DNA from: Bacteroidales bacterium | GTDB lineage: Bacteria > Bacteroidota > Bacteroidia > Bacteroidales > G3-4614 | Assembly (NCBI GenBank): GCA_017521245.1 | Contig: JAFXDI010000023.1 | Location: 1,614-65,613 of the forward strand | Length of the DNA: 64,000 nt | Direction of reading: 5' to 3' | In this document: positions 14,940 to 61,631 of the stretch, piece after piece | How the letters are laid out: each line of letters starts with the position of its first letter | How positions within the stretch are numbered: position 1 is the stretch's first letter | The notes under the pieces: model-generated | Database searches by the model: none | What the model saw: the letters and a program-made list of their open reading frames with translations, nothing else | What the model was told of the DNA's origin: nothing | Position numbers and translations under genes: made by a program

Positions 14940-15108
14940 ATTTCTTTTTTTGAGTTGTTTGTTGTTAGAGTCTTTATTTGCTAAAAACAAAGGTACTAAG
15001 TACCGTACAACTAAAAACTAACAAATCTGCGATTAAGCAAGAGCAGAAGCATACTTGTTTGAGTTATGCCAAGCGGTAAGCAGATTCAACAAACGAATGT
15101 TTGTTAAC

Positions 15109-46470: not shown

Positions 46471-46534
46471 AATATTTAATGTTTCAGTTATATTCCTATT
46501 ACCCCCTTTAAGGGGATTTTAATTCAATATCGTG

Positions 46535-46565
46535 CAAAGATAGAACTTTTTTCGTTTATGACAAT
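46535..46565 (-). promoter_or_regulatory. putative promoter for secDF
   Basis: On the minus strand: ATTG (46565-46562), 19-nt spacer, TATCTTTG (46542-46535). The leader contains the palindrome CCCCTTTAAGGGG (46503-46515). Confidence 0.4.
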
Positions 46566-46690
46566 AAAATAGTTAATATAAATCAACATTTAAGGGTGAT
46601 ATTCTTATTTTAAACAATAAAATGGTATATAAAATGAGAGAAAAGTGAGCGTTTATGATTAACTTTACACCCGAATTTTAAAAATTAGGA

Positions 46691-48631
46691 ATGAAAAATA
46701 ACAGAATACAATTTTTTACACGACTTTTTTCGGTAATATTATCCTCTATAATTGTTGTTTCGTGTGCAAGTATTGGCACTCCTTCCGGAGGTCCTCGCGA
46801 TTACGCACCACCTGTTTTCAAAAAAAGCAACCCGGAGCCAAATCAAACCGAGGTAAAAAGCAGAAAACTCACTTTGGAATTTGATGAAGTTCTTCAATTA
46901 GACAATCCTTCGGAAAATGTAATTATATCTCCTCCTCAAAAAGAGATGCCTAAAATTAAAGCAAACCTGAAGAGGATTGACATAGAGCTTATTGACTCAC
47001 TGCTCCCAAACACTTCGTACACCATTGATTTTGGAAGTGCCATAAAGGACAACAACGAAGGCAATATATTAAATGGTTTTAGTTTGGCCTTTTCAACCGG
47101 CAAGATATTAGACACGCTTCAAATATCAGGAACAGTTTTAAATGCAAGCAACTTAGAGCCTGTTACCGGAATGACTATCGGACTACATCCTGCCGATAAC
47201 GATACTGCATTTACAACTCTGCCATTTTCAAGAGTTACACGCACCGACCTATACGGAGGATTCTCCATAAAAAATCTCGCCGAGGGCAGATATAAAGTGT
47301 ATGGAGTAATAGATGCCGATCGCAACTATATGTTCAATGCACCAACAGAGAATATAGCTTTTTACGATGAGATTATCATCCCTTCAGCTAAGGTAACTAC
47401 CCATACAGACACAATCTTTAGCGATAGCACTCGCACCGTTATAGATACTATTATGACTCATAGTACAACCAAGTTCTTTCCCGATTCAATAGTACTGTTT
47501 GCATTTAACGAAGGGCAAAAGCCTCTATATCTTGCAAAGCATGACAGAAAAGACAGAGAGAAGCTAACCGTTACACTTTCAGACGCAACCAGAAAGTTAA
47601 TGAAACTCACGCCTGTAAATTTTGAGGCAAAAGAGGATTGGACCATAATAGAGCGTAACGTAACAAATGACACCCTTACCTTCTGGATAGAAGATTCTCT
47701 CATATATAATCTTGATACACTACAAGTTATTGCTGATTATCTTAAAACCGATTCTATTCTAAATATAGTTCCAGCAAGTGATACCCTTAATTTTATATAT
47801 AGAGAAGGGCCAACATCAAATAAAAACTCAAATAACGAAGAGGCAACACAATCTCGACGCCGCAGAGCAAAAACCGACACCATTAGGGTTGAAAGTTTAG
47901 AACTTGACAAGTCGATCTCTGGATTAATAGATATTTTCACATCACCTGCTATAAGGTTTGAAACTCCGCTAAGCAAGCTTGACAAAGATAAAATATCACT
48001 TAAAACCATCGTTGACTCCACTTGGATCGATGTCAGCGATTGGAGCATAGACAAAGATACTCTATCTCCTCGCCGATATATCATTAAGCACAAATGGGAG
48101 TTTGACAAAAAATATCTTCTATCTCTTGACTCTGCTTGTGCAACATCTATTTACGGACTATCAAACGACAGCATAGGTATTGATTTTAAAGTAAAGAAGA
48201 GTTCAGACTATTCAAATTTATACGTTGAGACAATAGGTGTTCAATCGGGGGCATTTGCCGAGTTATTAGACACAAAAGATACTCCCGTCAGATTTGCCAC
48301 CATAAAAAACGGAGGGGCAGAGTTTCCCTTTGTAAAACCCGGCAAGTATTATATAAGATTGGTTATTGATAGTGATAACAACAAAAAATTCACTACTGGC
48401 AATTTTAAAAAGAGATTGCAACCCGAAAAGACATACTACTACTCTAAACTCATTGAGTTAAAGGCAAATTGGGATATTGAACAGACTTGGGATGTTTTCG
48501 AGAAACCTTTTACTAAGCAAAAACCTTACGACTTGATTAAGAACAAGCCTAAGAAAGACAAAAACAAACCTAAGAAAGTAGAAGAGGATAACGATCCCAT
48601 ATACTCAAACAGACCATCTGCTAAATTTTAA
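46691..48631 (+). CDS. Ig-like (Big_5/SbsA-type) domain lipoprotein
   Basis: 646 aa. Lipobox VVSCAS, then GTPSGGPRDYAPPVF..SNPEPNQTEV...LTLEFDE, as in conserved Bacteroidales Ig-like domain proteins. Lys-rich tail. Confidence 0.6.
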   Translation: MKNNRIQFFTRLFSVILSSIIVVSCASIGTPSGGPRDYAPPVFKKSNPEPNQTEVKSRKLTLEFDEVLQLDNPSENVIISPPQKEMPKIKANLKRIDIELIDSLLPNTSYTIDFGSAIKDNNEGNILNGFSLAFSTGKILDTLQISGTVLNASNLEPVTGMTIGLHPADNDTAFTTLPFSRVTRTDLYGGFSIKNLAEGRYKVYGVIDADRNYMFNAPTENIAFYDEIIIPSAKVTTHTDTIFSDSTRTVIDTIMTHSTTKFFPDSIVLFAFNEGQKPLYLAKHDRKDREKLTVTLSDATRKLMKLTPVNFEAKEDWTIIERNVTNDTLTFWIEDSLIYNLDTLQVIADYLKTDSILNIVPASDTLNFIYREGPTSNKNSNNEEATQSRRRRAKTDTIRVESLELDKSISGLIDIFTSPAIRFETPLSKLDKDKISLKTIVDSTWIDVSDWSIDKDTLSPRRYIIKHKWEFDKKYLLSLDSACATSIYGLSNDSIGIDFKVKKSSDYSNLYVETIGVQSGAFAELLDTKDTPVRFATIKNGGAEFPFVKPGKYYIRLVIDSDNNKKFTTGNFKKRLQPEKTYYYSKLIELKANWDIEQTWDVFEKPFTKQKPYDLIKNKPKKDKNKPKKVEEDNDPIYSNRPSAKF

Positions 48632-48760
48632 CAGCGGATTTTTAGACATTGACTACACTATCACTTAAAACAAAAAATTATAGTCGATAAATTATAGAAG
48701 TACCCATAAAAATGAGTACCTTTGCAAAGTTTTATAAAAAAAGTAAATAAAATAGACAAA

Positions 48761-51529
48761 ATGGAATACAATTTTAGGGAAATTGAGCAACGTTGGCAAG
48801 AGTTTTGGCAAAACAACGACACATACCGCGTAAAAGAGGATGAATCAAAACCCAAGTTTTATGTTCTTGATATGTTCCCCTACCCTTCGGGAGCAGGGTT
48901 GCATGTTGGACACCCACTCGGATACATAGCATCTGATATATTTGCACGTTACAAACGCCTAAAAGGGTTTAACGTACTTCACCCAATGGGATATGATGCA
49001 TACGGATTACCTGCTGAGCAATACGCTATTCAAACAGGACAACACCCTGCAATAACAACTCAAAAAAATATAGAACGTTATCGTAATCAATTAGACAAGA
49101 TAGGTTTCTGTTTTGATTGGAATAGAGAGGTTCGTACTTGCGACCCCGGCTACTATCGTTGGACACAATGGGCATTTGTACAAATGTTCAATAGCTACTA
49201 CGACAACACAGAAGATAAAGCAATGCCTATTAAGGATTTAATTGACAAATTCAGCAAAGAGGGAACTTATAATCTTAATGTTGCATGTAGCGAGGAGTTA
49301 GAGTTCACTGCCGAAGAGTGGAACGCCATGAGCAAAGTTGAGCAAGAGAAAATCTTGTTAAACTATCGTATAGCATACCTTGGAGATACAATGGTTAACT
49401 GGTGTCCAAAATTGGGAACAGTTCTTGCAAATGATGAGGTTAGCGAAGGAGTTTCAATTCGTGGAGGTTACCCTGTTGAGCAAAAAGTTATGCGTCAATG
49501 GTGTTTGAGAGTATCGGCATACGCTCAACGTCTATTGAACGGACTTGACAAAATTGATTGGAGCGACTCACTAAAAGAGACACAACGCAACTGGATTGGA
49601 AGAAGCGAGGGTGCTGAGATGCAATTTAAAGTTGCAAACTCAGACGTTGTCTTTACTATATTCACAACTCGTGCAGATACTATATTTGGTGTAACATTTA
49701 TGGTGTTGGCACCTGAAAGCGAGTATGTAAACCAAGTTGTTACAACAGAGCAAGCAGAAGAGGTTAAACAATACTTAGAGAGCATTAAACACAGAACAGA
49801 GCGTGAACGTATTGCCGACCGCAAAGTTACCGGAGTATTCACAGGTGCATACGCTATCAATCCTCTTAACAACAAAGAGATACCCATCTATATCAGTGAT
49901 TACGTTTTAGCAGGATACGGAACTGGAGCTATTATGGCTGTTCCTGCGCACGATAGTCGCGACTACGCTTTTGCAAAAACATTTAATCTTCCTATCATTC
50001 CATTGATTGAGGGGTGCGATGTTTCAGAGGAGAGTTTTGATGCAAAAGAGGGTAAAATGATGAACTCTGAAGGCAACGGACTTAACCTTAACGGACTTGA
50101 AGTAAAAGAGGCTATCGCCAAAACAAAAGAGTTTATAAAAGAGAACAATCTTGGAAAGGTAAAAGTAAATTATCGTTTGCGTGATGCAATATTCAGCCGC
50201 CAAAGATATTGGGGAGAGCCATTCCCAGTTTACTACAAAGAGGGAATGCCTTATATGTTACCCGATGAGAAGTTACCACTACAACTTCCTGAGATTGACA
50301 AATATCTGCCAACCGAGAGCGGAGAGCCTCCATTGGGAAGAGCAAAAAACTGGGAGACAGCAGAGCACTATCCATTAGAACTCTGCACAATGCCGGGATT
50401 TGCAGGCTCATCGGCATACTACTTACGCTATATGGATCCACACAATCCAACAGCACTTGTATCAAAAGAGGCAAATGAGTATTGGAGAAATGTTGACCTA
50501 TACATAGGAGGAACAGAGCACGCAACAGGGCACTTAATTTATAGCCGTTTCTGGAATAAATTCTTATTTGACTTAGGAGTTGTCTGCGAGGACGAGCCAT
50601 TCAAAAAACTTGTAAACCAAGGAATGATTCAAGGACGTTCAAACTTTGTATATCGTATAAAAGATACCAATACATTTGTCTCACTAAACCTAAAAGGCAA
50701 CTATGACACAACACCTATTCACGTTGACGTAAACATTGTAAGCAACGACCGCTTGGATATTGAGGCATTCCGCAACTGGAATCCCGAATACAAAAATGCG
50801 GAGTTCATCTTAGAGGATGGCGAGTATATTTGTGGATGGGCAGTTGAGAAGATGTCAAAATCGATGTTCAATGTTGTAAATCCTGATGATATAGTTGAGC
50901 GTTACGGAGCAGACACACTACGTTTATACGAAATGTTCCTTGGTCCTTTGGAGCAAAGCAAACCTTGGGATACAAACGGAATTGACGGAGTTCACCGCTT
51001 TATCAAAAAACTTTGGAACTTGTTCTACGACAAAGAGACATTGGCCATTACCGATGAAGAGGCTACACCAGAGGAGTTGAAAGCACTTCACAAACTTATC
51101 AATAAAGTTGGTTCAGATATTGAGAACTTCTCATTCAACACTTCGGTAAGTGCATTTATGATTTGTGTAAATGAGTTAACATCATTGAAGTGCCGTAAGA
51201 GAGCAATCCTAAAAGAGTTGGTAATACTACTTGCACCATTTACTCCTCACCTTTGCGAAGAGTTATGGAGTCTGTTAGGATTTGAGCCATCAGTTTGTGA
51301 TGCTCCATGGCCTGTATATAATGCCGAGTTTACAAAAGAGAGTACAATAAACTATGCAATATCTTTCAATGGTAAGATGCGTTTCAATATGTCGTTCCCT
51401 GCTGATGCAGCAAAAGAGGATATTGAAAAAGCAGTATTGGAAGCTGAACAATCAGCAAAATGGATTGACGGCAAAACACCTAAAAAGATTATTGTTGTAC
51501 CAAACAAACTTGTAAATATTGTAATATAG
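48761..51529 (+). CDS. leuS: leucine--tRNA ligase
   Basis: I prefer ATG 48761 ([16 protein letters not shown]). HIGH-type [13 protein letters not shown] ([10 protein letters not shown]). A -7-like box TACCTTTG lies at 48717-48724. The track start 48722 is a TTG. Confidence 0.97.
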
Positions 51530-51557
51530 AATTACAAATAAAACAACATAACTAAAG

Positions 51558-51588
51558 AAAGCATCGAGAATACTCGGTGCTTTTTTTA
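51558..51588 (+). terminator. rho-independent terminator after leuS
   Basis: 8-bp stem GCATCGAG / CTCGGTGC (one G-T pair), loop AATA, then T7. Confidence 0.75.
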
Positions 51589-51596
51589 TCTAACAA

Positions 51597-51645
51597 CTGA
51601 AAACTAATAGCTTAAAACTGGCAACCGACAGCTGAAACCTATTGC
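51597..51645. repeat. degenerate heptamer-phased tract (7 x CTnnnnn)
   Basis: Reads as CTGAAAA CTAATAG CTTAAAA CTGGCAA CCGACAG CTGAAAC CTATTGC, directly after the leuS terminator. Confidence 0.45.
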
Positions 51646-51725
51646 ATTATTAATAAATTTTATATTATTTTGTAACTTGGCATAAGTTTAAATTAGAAAT
51701 TTAAAAACAATATAACCAATAAATT

Positions 51726-54700
51726 ATGAGATCTAAAGCAATTCTATTTCTTGCATTGTTTGTAACACTATTTGCAACTAATGCAAAAGCCGCCTATGAT
51801 GTTTCTCATGGGGCAAACGTGAATATCTCACACTCAACGCACTATCCCATAGCAGTAAACATTAGTGGGACAGAGAGTCCCGTTCAGTTACTAAACAACA
51901 TTGCAACCGCACCCAGATGTGCGGCATACTTTGACAAGACAAGCACTGTATTTGAAGTAAGAGCAGGAGAAACTGTTACTCCAAATATCTCAATCAACGG
52001 AGACTGGATGCATGGTTATGTATATGTCGATTGGAACAACAATGGGCAATTTGACGTTAACATTACCGGAACAGGACCTTACACTAAAGGAACAAACAAT
52101 GAGTTGATGTGCTGGTCACTATACGGACACAACACCGATGGAGATACAGGATACAACAGCGATGGAGTATATCAATCAAGCGGAAATGTTCTTGCTCCGG
52201 GTTCTTTCACCGTTCCTGCTGGATTATCAGAGGGAGCAACTTTCCGTATGCGTTACAAAGTTGAGTGGAACAATATTGAACCCGCCGGATCATCAAGCAA
52301 TAAATTCTTAATAGACGGAGGTTCTATCATTGACGTTACTCTTAAAATTGTAGCAAGCAGTGGCAATATTGATACAGATGAACAATATCCTATTAATGAC
52401 TACACAGAGCCTCGCGTTGGAACAACTCCCGATGAAGCTGCGTGGTCAACAATTGAGGACGGATTAAACGCAACATGGGCATCACGCGACGTACACTATA
52501 AATTGCACGAAGTTCCCGAAGTTACAAAGAAGAGCGAAGCAACAATCTACGCTTGGCAAGGAGAACGTGCAAACATTCAAGCATTGCTTTATAGCAAAAC
52601 AGATCAAGGCTATTTGAGTGTTCGTATGACAACATGGAAGAAAGGCGAAACAGCAACAACCATAAATGCAGGTGAGGCTCGTTTTGTAAACTATGTTATT
52701 ACAGATGATTACAAACAATGTGGTGATCATCCCATTAACTTAACACCATGGTTGGTAGCCGATGTCATTGACCAAGACAAACCACACGCAGTTCCAGCAA
52801 TGGAGACCCGCCCTGTATGGTGTAAAATAGAGGTTCCTCGCAATATAGAGGCAGGAACATATAACACAACTTTGGAGATTGTTGATGAAAACGAGCAAGT
52901 AGTTGAGACATTAAAACTATATATAAACGTAAACAGTCGTTCAATTCCTGAGGTTAAAGATCAAAAATTCCACTTAGACTTTTGGCAACAACCATACGCA
53001 GTAAGTCGTTACTACCAAGTTGACCGCTGGAGCGATGCTCACATTGAAGCACTTCGCCCATACCTTGAGGCATTAGGTAAAGCAGGACAAAGAACAGTTA
53101 CTGCAATTCTGTTCTACGAACCTTGGGGAGTTCAATCACACGACAAATTTGACCCAATGATTCAAACAACAAAGAAAACAGATGGAACATGGAGTTATGA
53201 CTATACAATATTCGACAAATATGTAAACCTATGTGCCGAGTATGGTATTGACAAACAGATAAACTGTTTCAGCATGGTACCATGGGATATGAGTTTCCGC
53301 TATTGGGACGAGGCAACAAATTCATACCAAACCATTTCAACCACAACAGGAACAACAACATACCAAGACCTCTGGAATAGTTTCCTATCATCATTCAAAG
53401 CACACCTGCAATCAAAAGGGTGGTTTGACAAGACAAACATTGCTATGGATGAGCGTGCAGAGGCAGATATGTTGAACGCATATAACATTGCAAGTGGTTT
53501 AGGATTTAAGATGGCATTGGCAGGAAACTATCACTCATCATTGAGCGACAAACTTCAGGATTTCTGCGTAGCATTAGGACAAGACAAGAGTTTCACCGAT
53601 GCACAACGCCAATATCGTAAATCAAACAACATGGTAACAACCGTATATACAAGTTGTGCCGATGTTGAACCAAACATCTACTCAAACTCACTTCCAGCAG
53701 AGGCAACATTCTTACCTATCTACGCTGCGGCAAACGATTTGAGCGGATACCTACACTGGTCATGGATGAACTGGGCAGAAAACCCATTAAAAGATACACG
53801 TTTCCGTTTGTTTGGAGCAGGAGATACATATTGCTACTACCCAGGCAATCGTTCAAGTGTAAGATTTGAACGTTTAGTTGAGGGAATACACCAATATGAA
53901 AAGATACAAATTCTAAAAGAGGAGTATAAAAACGACTCTGAAAAATTGGCTACACTTAACGGATTGTTAGACAGATTTATGAGCAGTTCGGTTGCAGGAG
54001 AGCAATGTGCTAAATATGTTAATGATTTGGAGAACTTCCTCAATGGACTCGATGTTACGATACCAACACCTCAGGATGTAACAACAGGATACTACCATAT
54101 AGTGAGCCGTGCAACTGCTCGTACCGAGAATATCTATAACGATGCATTCCTAAGCGGTAACACCAAGAAATTTACACTTCAATCAGACAGTAAAGTTACT
54201 ACCAACAATGGTATATGGCATGTAACAGTTAATAGCAACACACTTGGCATTAAGAACGGAGACGGAAACAACTTGATTGCAGGAGCAAGTTACTATGGAA
54301 ATGTAGTAGGTAATTTCAGTCAACTAACAATTGGCTCAACTTACGATGTTGGCGAGTACCGTTACTACTTCTTTAATGAAGCACTAAACTGTACAAACGG
54401 AGATGTAAACTTCAAAGTAAACAATATCGACTACGTAACAACATGGACAGACGGTCCAGCTACTGCCGATGACCTACAATGGCGTTTTGAGCCAGTTGAT
54501 ATGGAAGGCAAGAGAGCATACACCGTAGTTTTGAACGGAGCTGCATCGGGAGCATACGTTACATATACACACGGCATAGTAGTTGAGAAAGCATTTAACG
54601 GAGGATTCTTTATTGCTCCAGAAAATGTTGCCGCAACAGCATTCTCGGTTGTTGTTCCCAACGAAATTGTATTAGGAGCAGATATTCAAGTAGCAAACGG

Positions 54701-57674
54701 CACAATTACAGTTTCTAACATTGTATTAATGGAAGAGCCTGAAAAGATTGAGTTGTTCAACACGAGTAGAGGTAGTATGACTATCCCTCCCTATCGTATT
54801 CCGGGTATCGCAAAAACAAGCACAGGACGCCTAATAGCAGTTGCAGGACGTTTGGTCTGCGGAACAGACCCCGGATACGGACAAGTTGACGCAGTATGTC
54901 GTATAAGTGATGACAACGGAAAAACTTGGGGAGCAGAAAAAGATATTGCTGTTGGAACAGGACGAACATCAGCAACCGTAAACTACTTTGATACAGCCTT
55001 TGGAGATCCTGCCATTGTTGCAGACCGTACAAGCCAAGAGGTAGCAGTTATAGTAGTTGCAGGATGTACAGTATATGGCAATGGTAACACAACTCGTAGT
55101 AACCCAAATAAGATAGGAATAATACACAGTACCGATAACGGAAACACATGGGGGACACCTGTTGATATTACAGAACAAATCTACTCATTGTTTGACAGCG
55201 GTAATCCAATTGAATCGGCATTCGTAGCAGGAGGTAAAGTATTCCAAAGCCGTATAGTTAAGAAAGGGCAATACTACCGTTTATACGCTGCAATGTGTGC
55301 TCGTCCCAACGGAAACCGAGTAATATACTCTGACGACTTTGGACGTACTTGGCATGCACTTGGAGGAGCAAGTGCACTACCGGCACCCAGCGGTGATGAG
55401 CCAAAATGCGAAGAGACACCAGACGGACGCGTAATACTCTCAAGCCGTACAGCAGGTGGTCGTTACTATAATATATTCACCTACACCAACACAATGGAGG
55501 CTGAAGGAAGTTGGAGTACCGATGTTAAGAGTACATTCTCCGGTTCAGGTAAAACTCCGGGAAACAACTCAACCAATGGAGAAATTTTGATTGTTCCCGT
55601 TAAACGCAACAGCGACAACAAAGAGATGTACTTGGCATTGCAATCTCTTCCAACCGGAAGCAGTCGTACAAATGTTGGAATCTTCTACAAAGAGCTCACA
55701 GAATATTCTGATTATAGCAATGTGGCAAACCTTGCAACGGGTTGGGACGGATACTACGAAGTAAGTTCAACTGCTTCGGCATATAGTTCAATGGATCTAC
55801 AAGCCGACAACAAAATAGCCTTTATCTACGAGGAGACATTAACAAAACATGGTACAGCACAAAACCCAGTATCAACAAGTTTCCCAACAGGAGCAGGAAC
55901 TCACAACTATGATGGATTCGACAACTTCTATATTGGCTACAACTTGGAGTATATAACCAATGGAGCATATAGCGTTAAAACAGACGTAAATCGTGGAAAC
56001 ATTGTAAAGAAATATCTAACATCATACGTTGCAAATGCTGAGGCATCAGAAGAACTTAAAGCCGAAGCAAACGAGGCAGTAGAGGCACTGGGAGATAACC
56101 CAACAACAACCGAAATTGATAACATATATACACTACTCCAACCACGCGACCCTTTTGACGGTAAGGTTGTAACATTCACAAACGTTCAACAAAACGGGAT
56201 GGAATACACCATATATGTTAACAGTAGCAACAAACTTGCATTGAGCAGTTCAAATGCAACAACACTTGGAGAGAGCGCACAATTTGAGTGTACAAAACAA
56301 GATAATGGCAAATACTCATTTCGCAATGTTGCAACAAATATGTATATGATATGGCGTGCAGGGGATAGCCAAAATTATGGATATAACAGCAATTCAGGAA
56401 CATTATCAACATACAATGCAACATATTGCGACTTCTCAATAGTTGACGGAAGTTCAACAAAAGAGGGAACATACTATATGGTTGGTAAGAGAGACGGCGG
56501 TTCATCAGAGGGAACATTTGTAGCAATGTCAGCAACAGGAGTCTTTGACTCATGGGGCAACTCAGTTGCATGGTCAAGCACATACAGCAACCTATATAAA
56601 ATAGGCTTTATAGAGATTGCTCCCACAACATATACAGTTACAGTATCAACCGAGAACTCTTTGTACGGAACAGTAGCAATTCAAGGAAACACAGGAACAA
56701 CAGCAGATATTGAAGAGGGAGCAACTGTTACAGTAGTTGCAACACCAGCTGAAAGTTATCAATTTGAGGGTTGGTATTCAAACGGAACAGAGGTTAGTGC
56801 AGATGCTTCGTACACATTTACAGTATCGGCAGAAACATCATTACAAGCAAGATTTGAGGAGATTCCTACCACTCCCGAAGAGCCAGAGTACTGTACAACT
56901 TTCGGCACATCAACTCGCACAAACGGAGATAGAAAATTAACCTCATTCACACTTTCTGACGGAGCAAACGAAGGCACAATAGACGTAAATCAATCATCTG
57001 CATCAGGAGCAAATATATATTTTGACAAAACAGATATTGCAATATCACTTGAAGCAGGCAAAGAGATTACATCAACAATCAATTGGTCTGGAACATGGAT
57101 GCACTCATACTTGTACATCGACTTCAACGATGACAAAGAGTTTACCCCAGTAGTATTAAATAATGCAGTAACAGAAGATAGCGAGTTACTGTCATACTCA
57201 TTCTGGGCAGGAACAGACGGAGCACCATCAACCACAGGAGCAAACGACAGTTACGGATACAACAGTGCTGGTCAATATATAACAGGAGATAATCGTTCAG
57301 TATGGGCATTACCGGCATTTACTATCCCGTCAACGGTAGCAGAGGGAACTTATCGTGCAAGGCTAAAAATAGACTGGAACACTGCTAACGCATGTGCAAT
57401 AAACAGCACCGACGAAGCACCTTGTATTGTTGACTTTATGATAACAGTAACATATCCCGATGGAATCGCAGATGCCGATGCTAACACAGTAAAAGTTTTC
57501 GCAACTGACAGAGGTATTATCATAAAAGGTTACGAAGGCAACGTAAAAGTAGTAAACGTAGTTGGACAACTTATTAAAGACCTATACGTAAACGGAGAGG
57601 CTCAACTTGACATAAACGCAGGTTTCTACATTGTAGTAACCGGAGAGAAAGCAACAGAGGTAGTAGTTAAATAG
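51726..57674 (+). CDS. 1982-aa T9SS cargo: GEVED-like domain, DUF4091/GH123-like region, unassigned beta-rich domains, GH33 sialidase, InlB B-repeat, second GEVED-like domain, T9SS CTD
   Basis: Signal peptide MRSKAILFLALFVTLFATNAKA. Sialidase YRIP motif (Y1023) and three Asp boxes (SDDNGKTW, STDNGNTW, SDDFGRTW). C-terminal sorting-domain pattern (VKVVNVVGQLIKDLYVNGEAQLDINAGFYIVVTGEKATEVVVK). Confidence 0.85.
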   Translation: MRSKAILFLALFVTLFATNAKAAYDVSHGANVNISHSTHYPIAVNISGTESPVQLLNNIATAPRCAAYFDKTSTVFEVRAGETVTPNISINGDWMHGYVYVDWNNNGQFDVNITGTGPYTKGTNNELMCWSLYGHNTDGDTGYNSDGVYQSSGNVLAPGSFTVPAGLSEGATFRMRYKVEWNNIEPAGSSSNKFLIDGGSIIDVTLKIVASSGNIDTDEQYPINDYTEPRVGTTPDEAAWSTIEDGLNATWASRDVHYKLHEVPEVTKKSEATIYAWQGERANIQALLYSKTDQGYLSVRMTTWKKGETATTINAGEARFVNYVITDDYKQCGDHPINLTPWLVADVIDQDKPHAVPAMETRPVWCKIEVPRNIEAGTYNTTLEIVDENEQVVETLKLYINVNSRSIPEVKDQKFHLDFWQQPYAVSRYYQVDRWSDAHIEALRPYLEALGKAGQRTVTAILFYEPWGVQSHDKFDPMIQTTKKTDGTWSYDYTIFDKYVNLCAEYGIDKQINCFSMVPWDMSFRYWDEATNSYQTISTTTGTTTYQDLWNSFLSSFKAHLQSKGWFDKTNIAMDERAEADMLNAYNIASGLGFKMALAGNYHSSLSDKLQDFCVALGQDKSFTDAQRQYRKSNNMVTTVYTSCADVEPNIYSNSLPAEATFLPIYAAANDLSGYLHWSWMNWAENPLKDTRFRLFGAGDTYCYYPGNRSSVRFERLVEGIHQYEKIQILKEEYKNDSEKLATLNGLLDRFMSSSVAGEQCAKYVNDLENFLNGLDVTIPTPQDVTTGYYHIVSRATARTENIYNDAFLSGNTKKFTLQSDSKVTTNNGIWHVTVNSNTLGIKNGDGNNLIAGASYYGNVVGNFSQLTIGSTYDVGEYRYYFFNEALNCTNGDVNFKVNNIDYVTTWTDGPATADDLQWRFEPVDMEGKRAYTVVLNGAASGAYVTYTHGIVVEKAFNGGFFIAPENVAATAFSVVVPNEIVLGADIQVANGTITVSNIVLMEEPEKIELFNTSRGSMTIPPYRIPGIAKTSTGRLIAVAGRLVCGTDPGYGQVDAVCRISDDNGKTWGAEKDIAVGTGRTSATVNYFDTAFGDPAIVADRTSQEVAVIVVAGCTVYGNGNTTRSNPNKIGIIHSTDNGNTWGTPVDITEQIYSLFDSGNPIESAFVAGGKVFQSRIVKKGQYYRLYAAMCARPNGNRVIYSDDFGRTWHALGGASALPAPSGDEPKCEETPDGRVILSSRTAGGRYYNIFTYTNTMEAEGSWSTDVKSTFSGSGKTPGNNSTNGEILIVPVKRNSDNKEMYLALQSLPTGSSRTNVGIFYKELTEYSDYSNVANLATGWDGYYEVSSTASAYSSMDLQADNKIAFIYEETLTKHGTAQNPVSTSFPTGAGTHNYDGFDNFYIGYNLEYITNGAYSVKTDVNRGNIVKKYLTSYVANAEASEELKAEANEAVEALGDNPTTTEIDNIYTLLQPRDPFDGKVVTFTNVQQNGMEYTIYVNSSNKLALSSSNATTLGESAQFECTKQDNGKYSFRNVATNMYMIWRAGDSQNYGYNSNSGTLSTYNATYCDFSIVDGSSTKEGTYYMVGKRDGGSSEGTFVAMSATGVFDSWGNSVAWSSTYSNLYKIGFIEIAPTTYTVTVSTENSLYGTVAIQGNTGTTADIEEGATVTVVATPAESYQFEGWYSNGTEVSADASYTFTVSAETSLQARFEEIPTTPEEPEYCTTFGTSTRTNGDRKLTSFTLSDGANEGTIDVNQSSASGANIYFDKTDIAISLEAGKEITSTINWSGTWMHSYLYIDFNDDKEFTPVVLNNAVTEDSELLSYSFWAGTDGAPSTTGANDSYGYNSAGQYITGDNRSVWALPAFTIPSTVAEGTYRARLKIDWNTANACAINSTDEAPCIVDFMITVTYPDGIADADANTVKVFATDRGIIIKGYEGNVKVVNVVGQLIKDLYVNGEAQLDINAGFYIVVTGEKATEVVVK
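52437..54050 (+). other. DUF4091 / GH123-like region (tentative, approximate bounds)
   Basis: ATIYAWQGERANIQALLYS, HLDFWQQPY, and an adjacent Asp-Glu pair in NIAMDERAE (D575-E576, nt 53448-53453). Family call is from memory only. Confidence 0.45.
54747..55960 (+). other. GH33 exo-alpha-sialidase catalytic domain (approximate bounds)
   Basis: YRIPGIAKTSTGRLIAV, three S-x-D-x-G-x-T-W Asp boxes, DEPK, AYSSMD (candidate nucleophile Tyr), FIYEE. Confidence 0.85.
57474..57671 (+). other. T9SS C-terminal sorting domain
   Basis: The last ~65 aa have the alternating beta-strand pattern and terminal K typical of Por secretion tails. Confidence 0.7.
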
Positions 57675-57716
57675 ATTTGTCAGTTATTAGACAATAAAAA
57701 CATAGTAATATAATTA

Positions 57717-57749
57717 AAGCGAGGTAGTTTAGCTACCTCGCTTATTTTT
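57717..57749. terminator. bidirectional rho-independent terminator between the sialidase gene and the ACT gene
   Basis: Perfect 11-bp stem AAGCGAGGTAG / CTACCTCGCTT with 5-nt loop. ATTTTTG follows on the plus strand; the minus-strand side is also T-rich. Confidence 0.75.
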
Positions 57750-57784
57750 GCACCAATCAGCCTTATCAGTCTAATTGAATTTTA

Positions 57785-58165
57785 CTATTTAATTGCTTCC
57801 ACACAAGCGTCAATATCAGCAGTTTTGATAACGATATTTGCAACGCCACCTTGAGCAAAGGCATACATATACTCAATTGAGATATTCTTTGAAGAGATAT
57901 TCTCAACAATTGAAGCTAATGCTCCGGGTTGGTTAGGAACTTCAACACACACAACATCGCTCTCTTTAACTGCAAAGTGAGCCTCTTTAAGAATCTTTGT
58001 TGCAAGAGCATTATCCGACACCAATAGGCGGAGGATACCAAAGTCGCTACTTTCAGCAAGGCTGAAAGCAAACATATCCACACCATTAGCAGCCAACACT
58101 TTTGCTACCTCGTTAATTCTTCCTGCACGGTTTTCAAGAAACACCGATAACTGTTTTACTATCAT
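57785..58165 (-). CDS. ACT domain-containing protein
   Basis: 126 aa, two short ACT-like halves (LSVFLENRAGRINEV...). Sits 34 nt downstream of the phenylacetate-CoA ligase gene. Confidence 0.8.
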   Translation of the reverse strand: MIVKQLSVFLENRAGRINEVAKVLAANGVDMFAFSLAESSDFGILRLLVSDNALATKILKEAHFAVKESDVVCVEVPNQPGALASIVENISSKNISIEYMYAFAQGGVANIVIKTADIDACVEAIK

Positions 58166-58199
58166 AACTCTTATATTTTTTTAGATGTGGTTTATAATA

Positions 58200-59501
58200 T
58201 TATTCAAGAACACGTTTATCAATTACTCTCTTTGATTTACCAACACTACGCTCAAGAGTGTTAGGCGAAACAATCTTGACATCAGCCGATATACTCAACA
58301 CGCTTTGTAGGCGACGAGCAAGACGATCGCGCATCTCAATTGTTTTATTAATCTCATCAGAGTAGTACTCCTCCTTAAGTTCAACATGCACTTCAAGGTT
58401 ATCGCGGTTATTCTCACGAGTAACAACAAGCAAGTATTGAGGTTCAAACTCTGGCAACTGAAGAATAACACTCTCAATTTGTGATGGGAATACATTGATA
58501 CCACGAATAATCAACATATCATCGCTACGTCCCATAATACGAGTCATTCTCACACTTGTACGTCCACACTCGCAAGGTTCATAAATTAAAGAACAAAGAT
58601 CTTTAGTTCTGTAACGCAACAGAGGCATACCCTCTTTAGTAAGGGTAGTAAATACCAACTCTCCTTGCTCACCTTCGGGTAACACCTCGCAAGTTTCAGG
58701 ATTTATGATTTCAGGGAAGAAGTGATCTTCGATGATATGTGAGCCATTCTTGCACTCACACTCATGCGACACACCGGGACCCATAATCTCGCTCAATCCA
58801 TATATGTTATAAGCATCTATTTGTAACTTCTCCTCAAGGCTCTTACGCATATTCTCAGTCCAAGGCTCACCACCAAATATACCTATACGAAGTTTTAGGT
58901 CATCAGGAGTAATTCCTTTTTTACGCATAACCTCAGCCATGTGCAGAGCATACGAAGGAGTACAAGCCACGCCAGTAATACCCAAATCTTTTATAAGAAG
59001 AATATGTTTGTCGGTGTTACCGCTCGAAGTTGGAACAACCGATGCACCCAAATGTTCAACACCATAGTGCAAACCTAAACCACCAGTAAACAATCCGTAA
59101 CCGTATGCCACAGAGATAGTATCTTCGCGTGAAGCGCCAAAAGCGGCCAAACAACGAGCAATAGCCTCTGACCAAACAGCAAGATCTCTGCGAGTATAAC
59201 CCACAACTGTTGGGCGTCCTGTTGTTCCAGACGAAGCGTGAACTCTCACAATAGCCGATTGAGGAACAGCATTCAATCCAAACGGATAGTTATCGCGAAG
59301 GTCTTGCTTAGTAGTAAAAGGCAATTTTTTAATATCATCAATAGTTTTGATGTCATCAGGCATAATATTCATAGCCTGCATCTTTTCGCGATAGAAAGGC
59401 ACATTGTGATATACATTATCAACCAATTTTCTTAATCTTGCACCTTGAAGTTGTCGCATCTCCTCTCGCGACATACACTCCTTATTTTTATTCCAAATCA
59501 T
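58200..59501 (-). CDS. paaK: phenylacetate--CoA ligase family protein (PaaK-like)
   Basis: 433 aa. SSGTTGRPT AMP-binding motif, PaaK-type length and layout. Confidence 0.9.
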   Translation of the reverse strand: MIWNKNKECMSREEMRQLQGARLRKLVDNVYHNVPFYREKMQAMNIMPDDIKTIDDIKKLPFTTKQDLRDNYPFGLNAVPQSAIVRVHASSGTTGRPTVVGYTRRDLAVWSEAIARCLAAFGASREDTISVAYGYGLFTGGLGLHYGVEHLGASVVPTSSGNTDKHILLIKDLGITGVACTPSYALHMAEVMRKKGITPDDLKLRIGIFGGEPWTENMRKSLEEKLQIDAYNIYGLSEIMGPGVSHECECKNGSHIIEDHFFPEIINPETCEVLPEGEQGELVFTTLTKEGMPLLRYRTKDLCSLIYEPCECGRTSVRMTRIMGRSDDMLIIRGINVFPSQIESVILQLPEFEPQYLLVVTRENNRDNLEVHVELKEEYYSDEINKTIEMRDRLARRLQSVLSISADVKIVSPNTLERSVGKSKRVIDKRVLE

Positions 59502-59509
59502 CTTTTTTA

Positions 59510-59592
59510 TTTAATGAGGAATTAGGAATGAGGAATGTGAAATGAAAACAATCTCTGTCCTAAAATTCCTAATTACCAATTTTTAATTAACA
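59510..59592. repeat. heptamer-phased GAGGAAT/TAGGAAT repeat with inverted ATTCCTA partner (imperfect hairpin)
   Basis: GAGGAAT TAGGAAT GAGGAAT GTGAAAT GAAAACA (59516-59550) faces ATTCCTA ATTACCA ATTTTTA ATTAACA (59565-59592). Arms 59518-59533 / 59559-59577 can pair. Confidence 0.7.
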
Positions 59593-59663
59593 AACCTTCG
59601 TTTCTTGATTTTGCTAACGCTCTACATAGTTCAAGTAAACTTGACTCTGCCCTCGCTCACTCG

Positions 59664-59716
59664 CAAAATTCCTAATTTCTAATTGTTGCAAAGCAACGAA
59701 CTAATTCCTAATTTAA
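59664..59716. repeat. two direct AATTCCTAATTT copies flanking a GTTGC-AAA-GCAAC hairpin, overlapping the aminotransferase stop codon
   Basis: AATTCCTAATTT at 59667-59678 and 59703-59714; hairpin at 59685-59697. The stop TAA (59713-59715, minus) lies inside the second copy. Confidence 0.7.
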
Positions 59717-61029
59717 ATAGGGTGATCCATTTTAAAGTTACGCATACGCTCCTCCAGTACAGGGTATAGTTCCTCTCTCATTCGTGATGTACAGGCTCTA
59801 ACACCCTCCTCCTCGCTACCAGTTGTAGAGAGCGATATTGAACTAACACCATAATAGAGTAACTCTTTTAGGAGTTCACCGCTCTTAATACCCGGATAAC
59901 CTATTGTAAAGAAGAAACCATCACCAACCTTGCGAGTAACATCGTGGTCATAAACAATATAAAAGCCGTTATCGGTAAAAATCTTTTTCATTCGTGCCGC
60001 TCTACGAGCATACTCTTCGGTTTCGGCAACAAAATCCAACTCTCCGTCTGTTGCAGCTTTAAGCATTGCGGCATAACCATATTGAGTTGAGTGCGTAACA
60101 CCCGAAGTTATCATATACATTATAGAGGCCGTAAATGTAGAACCAAAGTGTCCTTTGCCACCATAACGCGTAGCCAACCCCTCAAAACAACTATTCCAGA
60201 GATTAGGCGAAATACACGCCACCGCCATACGTTGACCTGCGTATGAGAATATCTTTGATGACGATAGCATAACTATATAGTTCTTGCAATAGCGACCAAC
60301 AGTAGGCACAAATGGTGGAGTAAATGGCTTACCAAGATATTGGCGGAAGTCCATACAGAAATATGCCAAATCTTCCAATACAATCACACCATATTTATCG
60401 GCAAGTTCACCAATAATTTGCAACTCGCTCTCCTCTAAACAGATCCATGCAGGGTTATTGGGGTTTGAGTATATTATAGCAGCAATATCTCCACGCTCAA
60501 AGAAACTCTCAATCTTTGCTCTCAAAGCCTCTCCGCGATATGAGTATATATCAAACTGAAGATAGTCAGCACCAATAATTTTAAGTTGCGAACGCTGTAT
60601 CGGGAAACCGGGGTCGATAAAAAGAACTTTGTTCTTTTTGGGGTTAGCCTGTGTAACAGCAATAAACGAGCCATACGAAGCGGCAACCGAGCCCACCGTT
60701 GGGATACAACACTCGGCAGGGATATCAATATCGATGAATGCCTTAACAAAACGCGATGCCTCTTTTTTGAGCTCGGGCACACCTGCCGCGGCAGGATATT
60801 GCGATGCAACATCTCTGTCAAGAGCCACCTTCTCAGCCTCACGTCCAATCACGCATGAGGGCAATCCCGGAGAGCCTTGATCCATACGAATAAAGGGAAT
60901 ACCTGTACGGCGCTCCAACTCGCTCGACAACAGCAACACTTCGCCAATAGTGGCACGTTGAAGGTCGGCAATAAGCAACTCTTCGGCAACCTCATTTACA
61001 AGTTCTTCTGAAAATATTCTATTATTCAT
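59713..61029 (-). CDS. class I/II PLP-dependent aminotransferase
   Basis: 438 aa. NPNNP and SSSKIFSYAGQR (PLP lysine) motifs. Substrate not inferable from sequence alone. Confidence 0.85.
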   Translation of the reverse strand: MNNRIFSEELVNEVAEELLIADLQRATIGEVLLLSSELERRTGIPFIRMDQGSPGLPSCVIGREAEKVALDRDVASQYPAAAGVPELKKEASRFVKAFIDIDIPAECCIPTVGSVAASYGSFIAVTQANPKKNKVLFIDPGFPIQRSQLKIIGADYLQFDIYSYRGEALRAKIESFFERGDIAAIIYSNPNNPAWICLEESELQIIGELADKYGVIVLEDLAYFCMDFRQYLGKPFTPPFVPTVGRYCKNYIVMLSSSKIFSYAGQRMAVACISPNLWNSCFEGLATRYGGKGHFGSTFTASIMYMITSGVTHSTQYGYAAMLKAATDGELDFVAETEEYARRAARMKKIFTDNGFYIVYDHDVTRKVGDGFFFTIGYPGIKSGELLKELLYYGVSSISLSTTGSEEEGVRACTSRMREELYPVLEERMRNFKMDHPI

Positions 61030-61052
61030 TATTTACATTTTTACTAATTAGG

Positions 61053-61631
61053 CTAAAAACTACTTTTTGCCTCATACCCCAACATAACCGCTTTAAGGTT
61101 TTGCTCAATAACAGCATCGCCCTTTGAAGCAAATATACGTTTTACACTATCCAAAATCATCTCCAAAGGCAAACCAATAGCATCAACAGCACCGCCCAAC
61201 AAAACCATATTCTCTGAACGAGGCATACCATTATCGGCAGCAATTTGAGCAGTATCAAGCAATACAATGTTTTTAACCTTATCCAATTCTTTGTCTAAAA
61301 GTTCTTGTTCGGGATAGTTAGGAATATTTATAAAAGGTTTTGATGAAGTTATCACCCAACCATCAGGAGCAAGATATGGCATATAACGCAAAGCCTCCAT
61401 AGGCTCTAACGAAATTATAACATTAGCCGAGCCCAAAGGAATAAGGTCAGAGTGAATAGGCTCTGATGATATTCTCAAGTTCGATTGAACATCACCACCA
61501 CGTTGGCTCATACCATGAACCTCAGCCTGTTTCAAATGCAACCCCTCGTTAAGAGCAGCATCACCAATAACTGTGGCAATCGACAAAATACCTTGTCCGC
61601 CAACACCCGAAAGAATTATATCTGTTTTCAT
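61053..61631 (-). CDS. iorB: indolepyruvate:ferredoxin oxidoreductase subunit beta
   Basis: 192 aa. GVGGQGILS N-terminus. Overlaps the iorA stop by 4 nt. Confidence 0.88.
   Translation of the reverse strand: MKTDIILSGVGGQGILSIATVIGDAALNEGLHLKQAEVHGMSQRGGDVQSNLRISSEPIHSDLIPLGSANVIISLEPMEALRYMPYLAPDGWVITSSKPFINIPNYPEQELLDKELDKVKNIVLLDTAQIAADNGMPRSENMVLLGGAVDAIGLPLEMILDSVKRIFASKGDAVIEQNLKAVMLGYEAKSSF

Follow-up and report, generated by a model that had tools for sequence, protein, structure and literature searches.

A predicted secreted protein of ruminant-hindgut Bacteroidales joins an intact GH123 β-N-acetylgalactosaminidase to an intact GH33 sialidase

Does a single gene really combine a GH123-like enzyme with a sialidase, and if so, which host glycan would such a protein dismantle? 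An earlier note proposed this combination for one gene in the window analyzed here, the whole 64-kb stretch of DNA. The gene is one open reading frame that runs from ATG to stop over 5949 nt with no internal stop or change of frame (Table 1). All of the motifs that had been listed lie where they were placed: AWQGERANIQ (276), HLDFWQQPY (416) and AMDERAE (573, containing D575-E576) in the upstream region, and YRIP (1023), AYSS (1352) and FIYEE (1366) in the sialidase. Matches in Pfam, the PDB and NCBIfam confirmed that GH123 and GH33 modules share one polypeptide. Judged from sequence, these matches far exceed chance, and the predicted product is an intact GH123 β-N-acetylgalactosaminidase and an intact GH33 sialidase within one protein that a Bacteroidales bacterium of the ruminant hindgut would secrete.

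Table 1. Sequence features of the gene and its downstream flank, in window coordinates
Feature	Position	Strand	Basis
Whole gene	51726..57674	+	1982 aa plus stop; ORF list and translation
Putative Sec-type signal peptide, aa 1-22, MRSKAILFLALFVTLFATNAKA	51726..51791	+	no lipobox Cys; read from translation
N-terminal accessory domain with GEVED (Pfam match aa 98-189)	51792..52427	+	PF20009 E=8.5e-8, 33.3 bits vs cutoff 24.4
GH123 N-terminal β-sandwich domain, aa 251-385	52476..52880	+	PF22680 E=1.6e-34; aligned with BvGH123 5L7R
GH123 catalytic (β/α)8 domain, aa 420-730	52983..53915	+	PF13320 E=4.8e-93; 5L7R E=3.7e-123
Catalytic Asp575-Glu576 of the GH123 module (IAMDER)	53448..53453	+	alignment to BvGH123, CpNga123 and 5fqg
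Predicted β-trefoil lectin-like domain, then small β-sandwich, aa 754-1007	53985..54746	+	AF2 and Foldseek
GH33 exo-α-sialidase six-bladed propeller, aa 1008-1378	54747..55859	+	10qf E=8e-64; NF052328 E=2.8e-78
Low-confidence stretch, then three-helix linker, aa 1379-1479	55860..56162	+	AF2 model
Second predicted β-trefoil lectin-like domain, aa 1480-1635	56163..56630	+	Foldseek; RicinB_lectin_2 weak
InlB-type B-repeat, aa 1639-1713	56640..56864	+	PF18998 (Flg_new_2) E=1.3e-10; long variant only
Second GEVED domain, ~aa 1795-1891	57108..57398	+	PF20009 E=5.1e-5, 24.4 bits = cutoff; long variant only
C-terminal DUF6383 domain, aa 1917-1981, candidate T9SS sorting signal	57474..57668	+	PF19910 25.1 bits vs cutoff 23.7
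Bidirectional intrinsic-terminator-like hairpin, 12-bp stem	57717..57743		terminator scan; before convergent ORF 57785..58165

The protein belongs to a family that forms over 120 clusters at the 90% identity level in public databases; its members span 1667–1982 aa, have equivalent N-termini and are annotated only as “DUF4091 domain-containing protein”. The exact 1982-aa sequence is already deposited in NCBI nr (its identity to P0407 was checked), and its closest relatives are labeled Candidatus Caccoplasma. About 23 species-representative metagenome-assembled genomes carry the fusion, and nearly every one derives from the cecum, colon or rectum of a ruminant; the hosts given in record names are deer, sheep, goat, buffalo and yak. 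The organism studied here is a ruminant-hindgut Bacteroidaceae bacterium. Its DNA, too, most likely comes from a metagenome-assembled genome, with the identical protein on four contigs, the longest of 72 kb, which leaves room for the suspicion that mis-assembly, a missed stop or a frameshift joined adjacent genes. That suspicion is effectively refuted: the same uninterrupted architecture recurs across the independent clusters and species-level genomes, which stem from different studies, domain boundaries are conserved, and the frame stays open from end to end.

The upstream module is a true GH123, as the earlier note had suggested from its resemblance to DUF4091 proteins. Its catalytic domain scores 312.5 bits against the GH123_cat profile (cutoff 23.1) and covers the full profile (positions 1–324), and the Glyco_hydro_123_N_2 domain preceding it scores 119 bits (cutoff 27). 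Thus both parts that place a sequence in CAZy family GH123, the catalytic domain and the N-terminal β-sandwich, are present. Residues 235–753 align end to end with residues 30–556 of BvGH123 from Bacteroides vulgatus (PDB 5L7R/5L7U/5L7V), which shares the full module including the IAMDER motif. The proposed Asp-Glu pair falls column for column on the catalytic pair of CpNga123 from Clostridium perfringens (PDB 5FQE), where the wild type reads ISMDER and the inactive mutant 5fqg reads ISMNQR. D575-E576 is the same in all 121 family sequences and would act by substrate-assisted retaining hydrolysis of terminal β-GalNAc. CpNga123 and NgaP (Paenibacillus sp. TS12), which act on GA2 and Gb4, have the same catalytic DE, but these Firmicutes enzymes stand alone and are more distant (E=6e-62). 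BvGH123 and Uhgb_GH123 (B. plebeius BACPLE_01933) also stand alone, at ~560–580 aa, and have no sialidase, lectin-like or GEVED domains; Uhgb_GH123, of the same Bacteroides clade as BvGH123, hydrolyzes asialo-GM2.

The downstream module is a complete GH33 sialidase, unambiguous against solved structures and the NCBIfam family NeuramTDE0471. Its closest structure by phmmer is Td-NanH (TDE0471) of Treponema denticola (PDB 10qf-10qi), matched over 350 aa, followed by the Porphyromonas gingivalis sialidase 8feb (E=4e-23), 1eur (E=1e-14), pneumococcal NanA and others. The NeuramTDE0471 score of 264 bits lies below the 900-bit equivalog cutoff, so the module is a relative of Td-NanH and not its ortholog. 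Propeller homology is accompanied by the full set of GH33 catalytic residues: R1024 (in YRIP), R1241 and R1314 would form the Arg triad, D1048 the acid/base and Y1353-E1225 the nucleophile pair, and exactly three Asp boxes, as had been claimed, lie at 1061, 1135 and 1202. D1048 aligns to Td-NanH Asp165, the residue changed to Ala in 10qi, and Td-NanH shares the Y/FRIP Arg, the other catalytic residues and the three Asp boxes. It differs in setting, being a ~540-aa surface enzyme of an oral spirochaete with a β-grasp N-domain, known in the context of complement evasion. Sialidases of the Td-NanH type cleave both Neu5Ac and Neu5Gc (bioRxiv 10.64898/2026.02.05.703967), and the module here is predicted to release sialic acid. 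The best 120 candidates of the sialidase-domain homolog search omit the fusion family, whose members are 68–92% identical in this domain; we read this as a quirk of candidate selection.

Could one of the two modules be catalytically dead, serving in carbohydrate binding or adhesion, so that the protein has a single activity or is a surface adhesin? On the full protein, Pfam BNR_2 falls short of its gathering threshold (24.2 vs 31.4 bits), and three Asp boxes are fewer than the four or five of a typical GH33. Three boxes are, however, normal for the highly active Td-NanH subfamily (bioRxiv 10.64898/2026.02.05.703967), and the catalytic residues of both modules are all present and do not vary among the 121 family sequences. 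Across these sequences the ten active-site positions are conserved, the one exception being E1229, which is Asp in a single sequence. Moreover, conservation within the protein is highest in the two catalytic modules, with median identities of 73% and 76% against 55–59% for the trefoils and linker. We consider loss of either activity highly improbable.

The regions around the catalytic modules are rich in accessory domains. Both GEVED-like domains and the single B-repeat that had been described were recovered by Pfam profiles. The N-terminal accessory domain with GEVED and the C-terminal GEVED unit are paralogs (30% identity, E=9e-20), and the unit of B-repeat and GEVED matches a unit of the CotH protein encoded at 10986..14990 with 36% identity (E=3e-36). 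The B-repeat is missing from family members of ~1667 aa. The two β-rich domains left unassigned by the earlier note both exist and are predicted β-trefoils, identified solely by structure prediction and Foldseek, in models of medium confidence (pLDDT 74–77) built on shallow alignments of 15 sequences. For the first (pLDDT 77, pTM 0.74), Foldseek found PSL (3phz, E=1e-4) and FGF1 (target-normalized TM about 0.55); the region has no sequence-level match in Pfam or the PDB. For the second, it found LSL (2y9f, E=2.4e-5, target-normalized TM 0.75), BEL (4i4o) and botulinum HA33 (5b2h). The isolated β-rich regions gave nothing in Pfam and NCBIfam beyond a weak RicinB_lectin_2 match on the second trefoil (E=0.002), and family-profile searches against PDB sequences returned nothing significant. 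In the model of aa 1376–1640, helices occupy residues 48–96 of the segment. By their predicted fold the trefoils are lectin-like and may bind glycans.

How the protein reaches the surface is suggested by its two ends. The N-terminus reads as a putative Sec-type signal peptide. The description of the protein as T9SS cargo holds in part: the DUF6383 tail scores above its threshold, whereas the type-A sorting model TIGR04183 stays below cutoff on the C-terminus (14.8 vs 23 bits, E=0.022). PF18962 gives no match to the protein even at E<=10, and the C-terminus weakly matches that of a T9SS endonuclease (E=1.9e-4). The one passing mention of DUF6383 found in the literature concerns P. gingivalis PG2216, where it is described as a putative domain for T9SS targeting. 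The C-terminal 90 aa comprise this domain; a short tail reads IYDLxGRKV...GIYIVNGKKVLVK. A neighboring 166-aa protein encoded in the window bears a genuine T9SS Por_Secre_tail, and no T9SS machinery genes lie within the window. Export by T9SS is plausible on these sequence grounds.

The genomic neighborhood does not point to a substrate. The gene appears monocistronic: by eye, a hairpin and T-run follow the upstream LeuRS gene at ~51560–51590, and a terminator-like hairpin lies downstream. A σ70 promoter scan was uninformative (17 sites against 17.9 expected), Bacteroidota promoters being outside its models. No PUL surrounds the gene, no sialic-acid or GalNAc catabolic genes occur within the 64 kb, and the window otherwise holds housekeeping genes and a few secreted proteins; the context therefore gives no clue to what the enzyme acts on.

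A better guide is a characterized enzyme of the same design. SiaBb3 of Bifidobacterium bifidum JCM 1254 acts on GM2 and Sd(a) by releasing first Neu5Ac and then GalNAc, and strips the Sd(a) cap from gut mucin; its GH123 is inactive before desialylation, and the D617A/E618A exchange, equivalent to D575/E576, abolishes its GalNAc-releasing activity (Katoh et al., J Biol Chem, Dec 2025, PMC12856340). Its authors call this bifunctional enzyme “unique” and see in it the first evidence of gut microbes being able to use Sd(a) caps (PMC12856340). We found no other paper on a GH123–GH33 fusion. The design is thus precedented, and the earlier note's statement that no such fusion was known to its author no longer holds, given this publication, the deposited protein and its more than 120 database relatives. 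SiaBb3 and, by prediction, the protein here are both secreted, cell-surface polypeptides of gut bacteria and of similar size (1753 aa against 1667–1982 aa in the family), with GH123 N-terminal to the sialidase, three Asp boxes and a catalytic Asp-Glu, and by analogy the function predicted here is the one shown there.

What is new here is the unrelated phylum and the subfamilies of the modules. SiaBb3 comes from an actinomycetote of a human host, the present family from Bacteroidota of ruminants. The SiaBb3 sialidase lacks Y/FRIP and is so atypical that its close homolog BBPR_1596 was missing from the CAZy GH33 list, whereas the module here is a canonical, Td-NanH-like GH33 with YRIP. The sialidase domains, the only part compared and in the case of SiaBb3 taken from an OCR-noisy supplementary figure, match only near the Asp boxes, with 28% identity over 106 aa, and belong to different subfamilies, so that the two proteins appear not to be orthologs. 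Similarly, the reported identity of the SiaBb3 GH123 to CpNga123 is 36% whereas the module here is BvGH123-like (E=4e-123), the anchor there is of sortase/LPXTG type whereas the tail here is DUF6383 (T9SS-like), and the protein here has GEVED, β-trefoil and B-repeat domains. Given the differences in sialidase subfamily, accessory domains and C-terminal tail, the fusion here probably arose independently.

Further arrangements occur within Bacteroidales. Three more arrangements join GH123 and GH33 with intact catalytic residues: a compact form (P0241), one with a different GH33 type (P0255) and one in reverse order (P0244). Such recurrence argues for functional coupling of the two activities. 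The same scaffold also exists without the sialidase (L021–L029); these loci are not masked or truncated, because they contain no N runs and their ORFs of 1044–1086 aa are complete, and the GH123 part can therefore evidently function alone. A 605-aa Phocaeicola faecalis protein (P0131), considered as an unfused half next to a GH123 gene, has GH84 and GH20 genes as its neighbors instead.

Taken together, we propose, with a probability of about 0.6, that the protein is a bifunctional exo-glycosidase that strips sialic acid and then β-GalNAc from Sd(a)/GM2-type caps. Sec export, probably with T9SS-type sorting through DUF6383, would leave the protein attached to the cell surface or shed from it, and the two predicted β-trefoils and two GEVED domains may hold it on host glycans. 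The GH33 propeller would first remove the α2,3-linked Neu5Ac or Neu5Gc that shields the neighboring β-GalNAc, and the GH123 module would then remove the exposed β1,4-GalNAc. The likeliest targets would be the Sd(a)/Cad caps carried by O-glycans of colonic mucin, together with gangliosides of the GM2/Sd(a) type from shed epithelium. Moose, deer and bovine intestine contain GM2 as well as Sd(a) gangliosides in NeuAc and NeuGc forms. The sialidase-first logic also fits data from A. muciniphila, whose GH33 sialidases desialylate Sd(a) and in which only one of five GA2-active β-HexNAc-ases, a GH20, tolerates the branching sialic acid. A point against the proposal is that the sialidase belongs to another subfamily than that of SiaBb3; we assume that hindered Neu5Ac, as in Sd(a)/GM2, is accessible to it. 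Of the earlier note's substrate proposal, then, the two-step logic on GalNAc-β1,4-(Neu5Ac-α2,3)-Gal caps stands on experiments with the analogous SiaBb3, and its extension to the present protein is by analogy.

A bifunctional enzyme might instead act on other substrates: linear sialylated β-GalNAc termini taken in series, such as sialyl-LacdiNAc (Neu5Ac-α2,6-GalNAc-β1,4-GlcNAc), or different host glycans decapped independently by modules tethered for co-location. LacdiNAc is abundant on ruminant glycoproteins, characterized GH123 enzymes also cleave the β1,3-GalNAc of Gb4, and the sialidase-less scaffolds fit this reading as well. The sialidase itself is canonical and broad-type, near Td-NanH, which acts on α2,3- and α2,6-sialylated serum glycoproteins (bioRxiv 10.64898/2026.02.05.703967). 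Many other giant multidomain proteins that lack GH123 contain the same GH33 cassette, and in Phocaeicola faecalis the gene for this cassette adjoins GH84 and GH20 genes. Yet GH123 and GH33 appear to have been fused at least three to four separate times, which an obligatory two-step substrate explains better than co-localization; the sole characterized example is specialized for Sd(a)/GM2, and both epitopes are documented in ruminant intestine. We therefore regard a substrate other than the branched caps as rather unlikely, and favor sequential removal of sialic acid and β-GalNAc from Sd(a)/GM2-type structures.

These findings extend the two-activity design well beyond Bifidobacterium, to dozens of uncultured ruminant-hindgut Bacteroidaceae species, in a Bacteroidales version with other module subfamilies, other accessory domains and another surface-sorting tail, alongside further arrangements that include the reverse order. 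More than 120 “DUF4091 domain-containing protein” entries are thereby flagged for re-annotation. The family supplies a canonical GH33 version of the enzyme that is probably easier to study, and an enzyme with the predicted activity could serve as a reagent against Sd(a) and Neu5Gc-Sd(a) epitopes. The occurrence of the design across phyla looks like convergent evolution, which strengthens the case for the ecological weight of Sd(a)/GM2-type cap removal. As a bolder proposal, to which we give somewhat less than even odds, GH123 and GH33 were fused independently at least three to four times (here, in the P0255 type, in the P0244 type and in SiaBb3); β-GalNAc caps shielded by sialic acid (Sd(a)/Cad and GM2, their Neu5Gc forms included) would then be a major overlooked determinant of nutrition or colonization in the hindgut of mammals, with the Bacteroidales family as the dominant enzyme for them in ruminants, and its flanking trefoils may be new sialo- or GalNAc-binding CBMs.

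The earlier note proposed that one protein encoded in the window joins a GH123 beta-N-acetylgalactosaminidase to a GH33 sialidase, and Pfam (for GH123) and PDB matches (5L7R, 10qf) confirm it. Its reading frame is single and uninterrupted, and every motif that had been quoted lies at the residue named: AWQGERANIQ at 276, HLDFWQQPY at 416 and AMDERAE at 573 (hence D575-E576), then YRIP at 1023, AYSS at 1352 and FIYEE at 1366 in the sialidase, with exactly three Asp boxes (1061, 1135 and 1202). The two GEVED-like domains and single B-repeat were likewise recovered by Pfam.

Features of the fusion protein, its surroundings and related proteins and loci (P, database proteins; L, loci in GTDB species-representative genomes)
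Feature	Location	Strand	Evidence or detail
Fusion ORF, 1982 aa	51726..57674	+	ORF list, translation
GEVED domains, two	aa 98-189 and about aa 1795-1891		Pfam
GH123 N-terminal domain	aa 251-385		Pfam E=1.6e-34
GH123 catalytic domain	aa 420-730		Pfam E=4.8e-93, full profile
Predicted beta-trefoil, then small beta-sandwich	aa 754-1007		AF2, pLDDT 77
Predicted three-helix linker	aa 1379-1479		AF2
Second predicted beta-trefoil	aa 1480-1635		AF2
B-repeat, one	aa 1639-1713		Pfam
AlaRS	3031..5655		
CotH protein, secreted, 1334 aa	10986..14990	-	CotH kinase-like domain, three InlB-type B-repeats, GEVED
166-aa protein	15109..15609	-	Por_Secre_tail, 29.5 bits vs cutoff 27
BspA-type leucine-rich-repeat protein	35826..36674	+	probable surface protein
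Big_5 + CarboxypepD_reg protein	46691..48631	+	probable surface protein, directly upstream of LeuRS
P0241			compact GH123-GH33, 1008 aa; module identities 65% and 55%
P0255			GH123 + more typical BNR_2/BNR_3 sialidase; GH33 module identity 29%
P0244			reverse order, GH33 then GH123, 946 aa
L010	3225..16366		fusion ORF 2019 aa, preceded by 2167-aa ORF on same strand
Sialidase-less scaffold, L021	7854..11114		
Sialidase-less scaffold, L025	7983..11117		
Stand-alone sialidase locus, L052	8001..17818		Phocaeicola faecalis GCA_965318375.1

The GH123 module is, judging by its residues, catalytically intact. A PDB search aligned BvGH123 of Bacteroides vulgatus (5L7R, E=3.7e-123) with aa 235-753 from end to end. 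The D-E pair, which had been put forward as catalytic, falls in the expected columns: IAMDER in both the fusion protein and BvGH123 aligns with ISMDER in wild-type CpNga123 (5fqe) and with ISMNQR in its deposited inactive mutant (5fqg). D575 and E576 are invariant in 121/121 family sequences. Mutating the equivalent pair (D617A/E618A) in SiaBb3, a GH123 + sialidase protein of Bifidobacterium bifidum, wholly abolishes pNP-beta-GalNAc activity (PMC12856340).

By its matches and active-site residues, the second module is a canonical GH33 sialidase of the Td-NanH subfamily. With the full protein as query, aa 1022-1371 matched exo-alpha-sialidase 10qf at E=1.8e-62; the isolated domain matched 10qf (E=8e-64) and P. 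gingivalis sialidase 8feb (E=4e-23). Entry 10qf is Td-NanH (TDE0471) of Treponema denticola: adding 12 to its chain numbering gives the R140 (RIP) and Asp165 of bioRxiv 10.64898/2026.02.05.703967, and entry 10qi has Ala in place of Asp165. D1048 aligns with Asp165, and R1024, E1225, R1241, R1314 and Y1353 with other conserved active-site residues; all six are invariant in 121 family sequences. Td-NanH likewise has only three Asp boxes (bioRxiv 10.64898/2026.02.05.703967), so having few of them reflects the subfamily and not decay. With the full protein, Pfam BNR_2 stays under its threshold (24.2 vs 31.4 bits), which tells more of the model than of the protein; NCBIfam NeuramTDE0471 matches at E=2.8e-78, yet far under its equivalog cutoff. 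Sialidase-domain identity to the window sequence is 68-92% within the fusion family and at most 78% for stand-alone sialidases among the matches listed in a homologue search with this domain alone, a search that listed no fusion family members, seemingly through candidate selection in its word-index step.

The GH123-GH33 fusion defines a conserved family. Among 5.8 billion proteins searched, 120 or more 90%-identity clusters share the architecture (64-88% identical), and about 23 MAGs among the GTDB species-representative genomes carry it, which rules out an oddity or an artefact. Recorded MAG hosts are water deer, roe deer, sheep, goat, water buffalo and yak, sampled from cecum, colon or rectum. 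The fusion protein itself is in NCBI nr (confirmed identical to P0407); its closest relatives, at 87-88%, bear the labels Candidatus Caccoplasma sp. or Bacteroidales bacterium, and members with a name are called 'DUF4091 domain-containing protein'. Most clusters are about 1667 aa long, the common short form ending in an 'IYDLxGRKV...GIYIVNGKKVLVK' motif; the window encodes a rarer long variant with an extra B-repeat, a second GEVED and a DUF6383 tail (aa 1640-1982). Conservation is highest in the catalytic modules (median 73% and 76% identity to the window sequence), followed by the N-terminal GEVED region (67%) and the trefoils and linker (55-59%). Locus L010 points to additional variation at the C-terminus and, possibly, to large secreted proteins encoded in tandem.

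Repeated, independent fusion of GH123 with GH33 is a textbook indication that the two functions are coupled, and the evidence best supports a two-step exo-glycosidase, secreted or on the cell surface. The sialidase would first unmask the cap, and GH123 would then take off beta-GalNAc. This order of action and the substrate are inferences, as are a lectin function for the trefoils and the route of secretion. GH123 enzymes cleave GA2 but not GM2. In A. muciniphila, only one of five GA2-active HexNAc-ases, a GH20, can act despite the sialic acid branch of Sd(a), and canonical GH33 sialidases can take that sialic acid off. Moose, fallow deer and bovine intestine contain NeuAc- and NeuGc-Sd(a) gangliosides and GM2, and both Neu5Ac and Neu5Gc were cleaved by all six sialidases studied, Td-NanH included (bioRxiv 10.64898/2026.02.05.703967). 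The main rival keeps both activities and assigns them other substrates, namely linear sialyl-GalNAc termini or independent decapping roles.

The sialidase-then-GH123 mechanism has a direct parallel in SiaBb3. The earlier note knew of no described fusion of this kind, and on this point it is out of date: SiaBb3 was published in December 2025 (PMC12856340). Anchored in the cell wall and 1753 aa long, SiaBb3 has its GH123 module at aa 281-757, ahead of an atypical sialidase (aa 1229-1607); from both GM2 oligosaccharide and mucin Sd(a) it releases Neu5Ac before GalNAc, and its GH33-dead mutant leaves Sd(a) intact (PMC12856340). Its demonstrated function is the one the note had predicted for the fusion protein, whose identity and probable mechanism were correctly called.

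The two proteins nevertheless differ, and are not orthologues. The SiaBb3 sialidase lacks Y/FRIP, whereas the fusion protein has YRIP; BBPR_1596, its close homologue, was absent from the CAZy GH33 list (PMC12856340). Identity between the two sialidases is only 28% over 106 aa, with SiaBb3 read from an OCR-noisy supplementary Fig. S1, and anchoring and accessory domains are unlike. Because the comparison covered the sialidase sequence of SiaBb3, the apparent independence applies to that half only.

Accessory regions were modelled with AF2 from alignments of family members, at medium confidence. The two beta-rich domains noticed earlier are present, and both are predicted beta-trefoils and candidate carbohydrate-binding modules. 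Foldseek matched the first to PSL, a lectin binding Neu5Ac-alpha2,6-Gal (E=1e-4), and to FGF-type trefoils (target-normalised TM about 0.55), and the second to LSL 2y9f (E=2.4e-5, target-normalised TM 0.75), BEL and botulinum HA33. Neither region has a sequence-level family match in Pfam/NCBIfam or in searches of family profiles against PDB sequences.

Export through T9SS, as the earlier note claimed, is plausible. By eye, the N-terminus is a Sec-type signal peptide without a lipobox Cys. The C-terminal 65 aa match Pfam DUF6383, termed a putative T9SS targeting domain in one paper, just over threshold; the T9SS type-A sorting model reaches 14.8 bits vs 23 required, leaving the claim unproven. 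The window's one above-threshold T9SS sorting domain, a genuine Por_Secre_tail, belongs to the 166-aa protein; this and the DUF6383 match make the route plausible. The B-repeat+GEVED unit of the CotH protein (aa 77-318) is 36% identical to the fusion protein's C-terminal extension (E=3e-36), so unrelated secreted proteins have an accessory cassette in common, a likeness that points to accessory-domain shuffling.

Other arrangements of the modules occur. In an exhaustive search of 1.84 billion representatives, only one 50%-identity cluster, the family's own, matched over the whole GH123-to-GH33 span. When domains were mapped locally on the 150 best hits of this search, three further proteins emerged with both modules and all catalytic residues intact (P0241, P0255 and P0244); the P0244 cluster includes a member titled "DUF4091 domain-containing protein [Bacteroidales bacterium]". 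Many other giant proteins, the largest of 3122 aa, contain the same GH33 cassette and a trefoil beside it. Among these, P0243, P0245, P0247, P0250, P0256, P0257 and P0249 span 1437-3122 aa, and their remaining regions had no Pfam match; P0249 has two GH33 modules in tandem. At L052, the gene for P0131, a sialidase of this subfamily that stands alone (65% identity), is followed directly by two GH84 and two GH20 (hexosaminidase) genes and adjoins PRTRC/ThiF/Toprim genes typical of a mobile element.

The sialidase also appears to have been lost. Nine species-representative genomes (L021-L029) carry the GEVED-GH123-trefoil scaffold and tail without it; direct inspection of two of them gave ORFs of 1044 and 1086 aa. 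When GH123 modules were placed in a neighbour-joining tree, drawn without support values, the sialidase-less forms branched at three or more points of the fusion clade, itself sister to stand-alone Prevotella-type GH123 enzymes. This nesting suggests repeated loss of the GH33-linker-trefoil cassette, and one fusion event followed by several losses would be the simplest reading.

In the window, the fusion gene is solitary, with terminator-like hairpins on either side and housekeeping neighbours (SecDF, LeuRS, PaaK, aminotransferase, IOR); Sus and nan genes are absent from the 64-kb window. We compared window 43627..61631 with four fusion loci. L004 and L018 match its gene order: both have orf126, PaaK, aminotransferase and IOR downstream, and L004 also has SecDF, Big_5 and LeuRS upstream, where L018 breaks off inside the fusion gene. 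Their flanking proteins are 75-97% identical to the window's, but their fusion copies are more distant (82% and 79%), that of L004 being the short form. In L001 and L002 the fusion is of the long type (87-88% identity), yet its gene adjoins an AlaRS 97-99% identical to the window's. The mismatch implies translocation, a recombination event or a second paralogue.

The fusion protein represents a new Bacteroidales version, probably arisen by convergence, of the only recently described bifunctional sialidase/beta-GalNAc-ase design, and it belongs to a large family without functional annotation.
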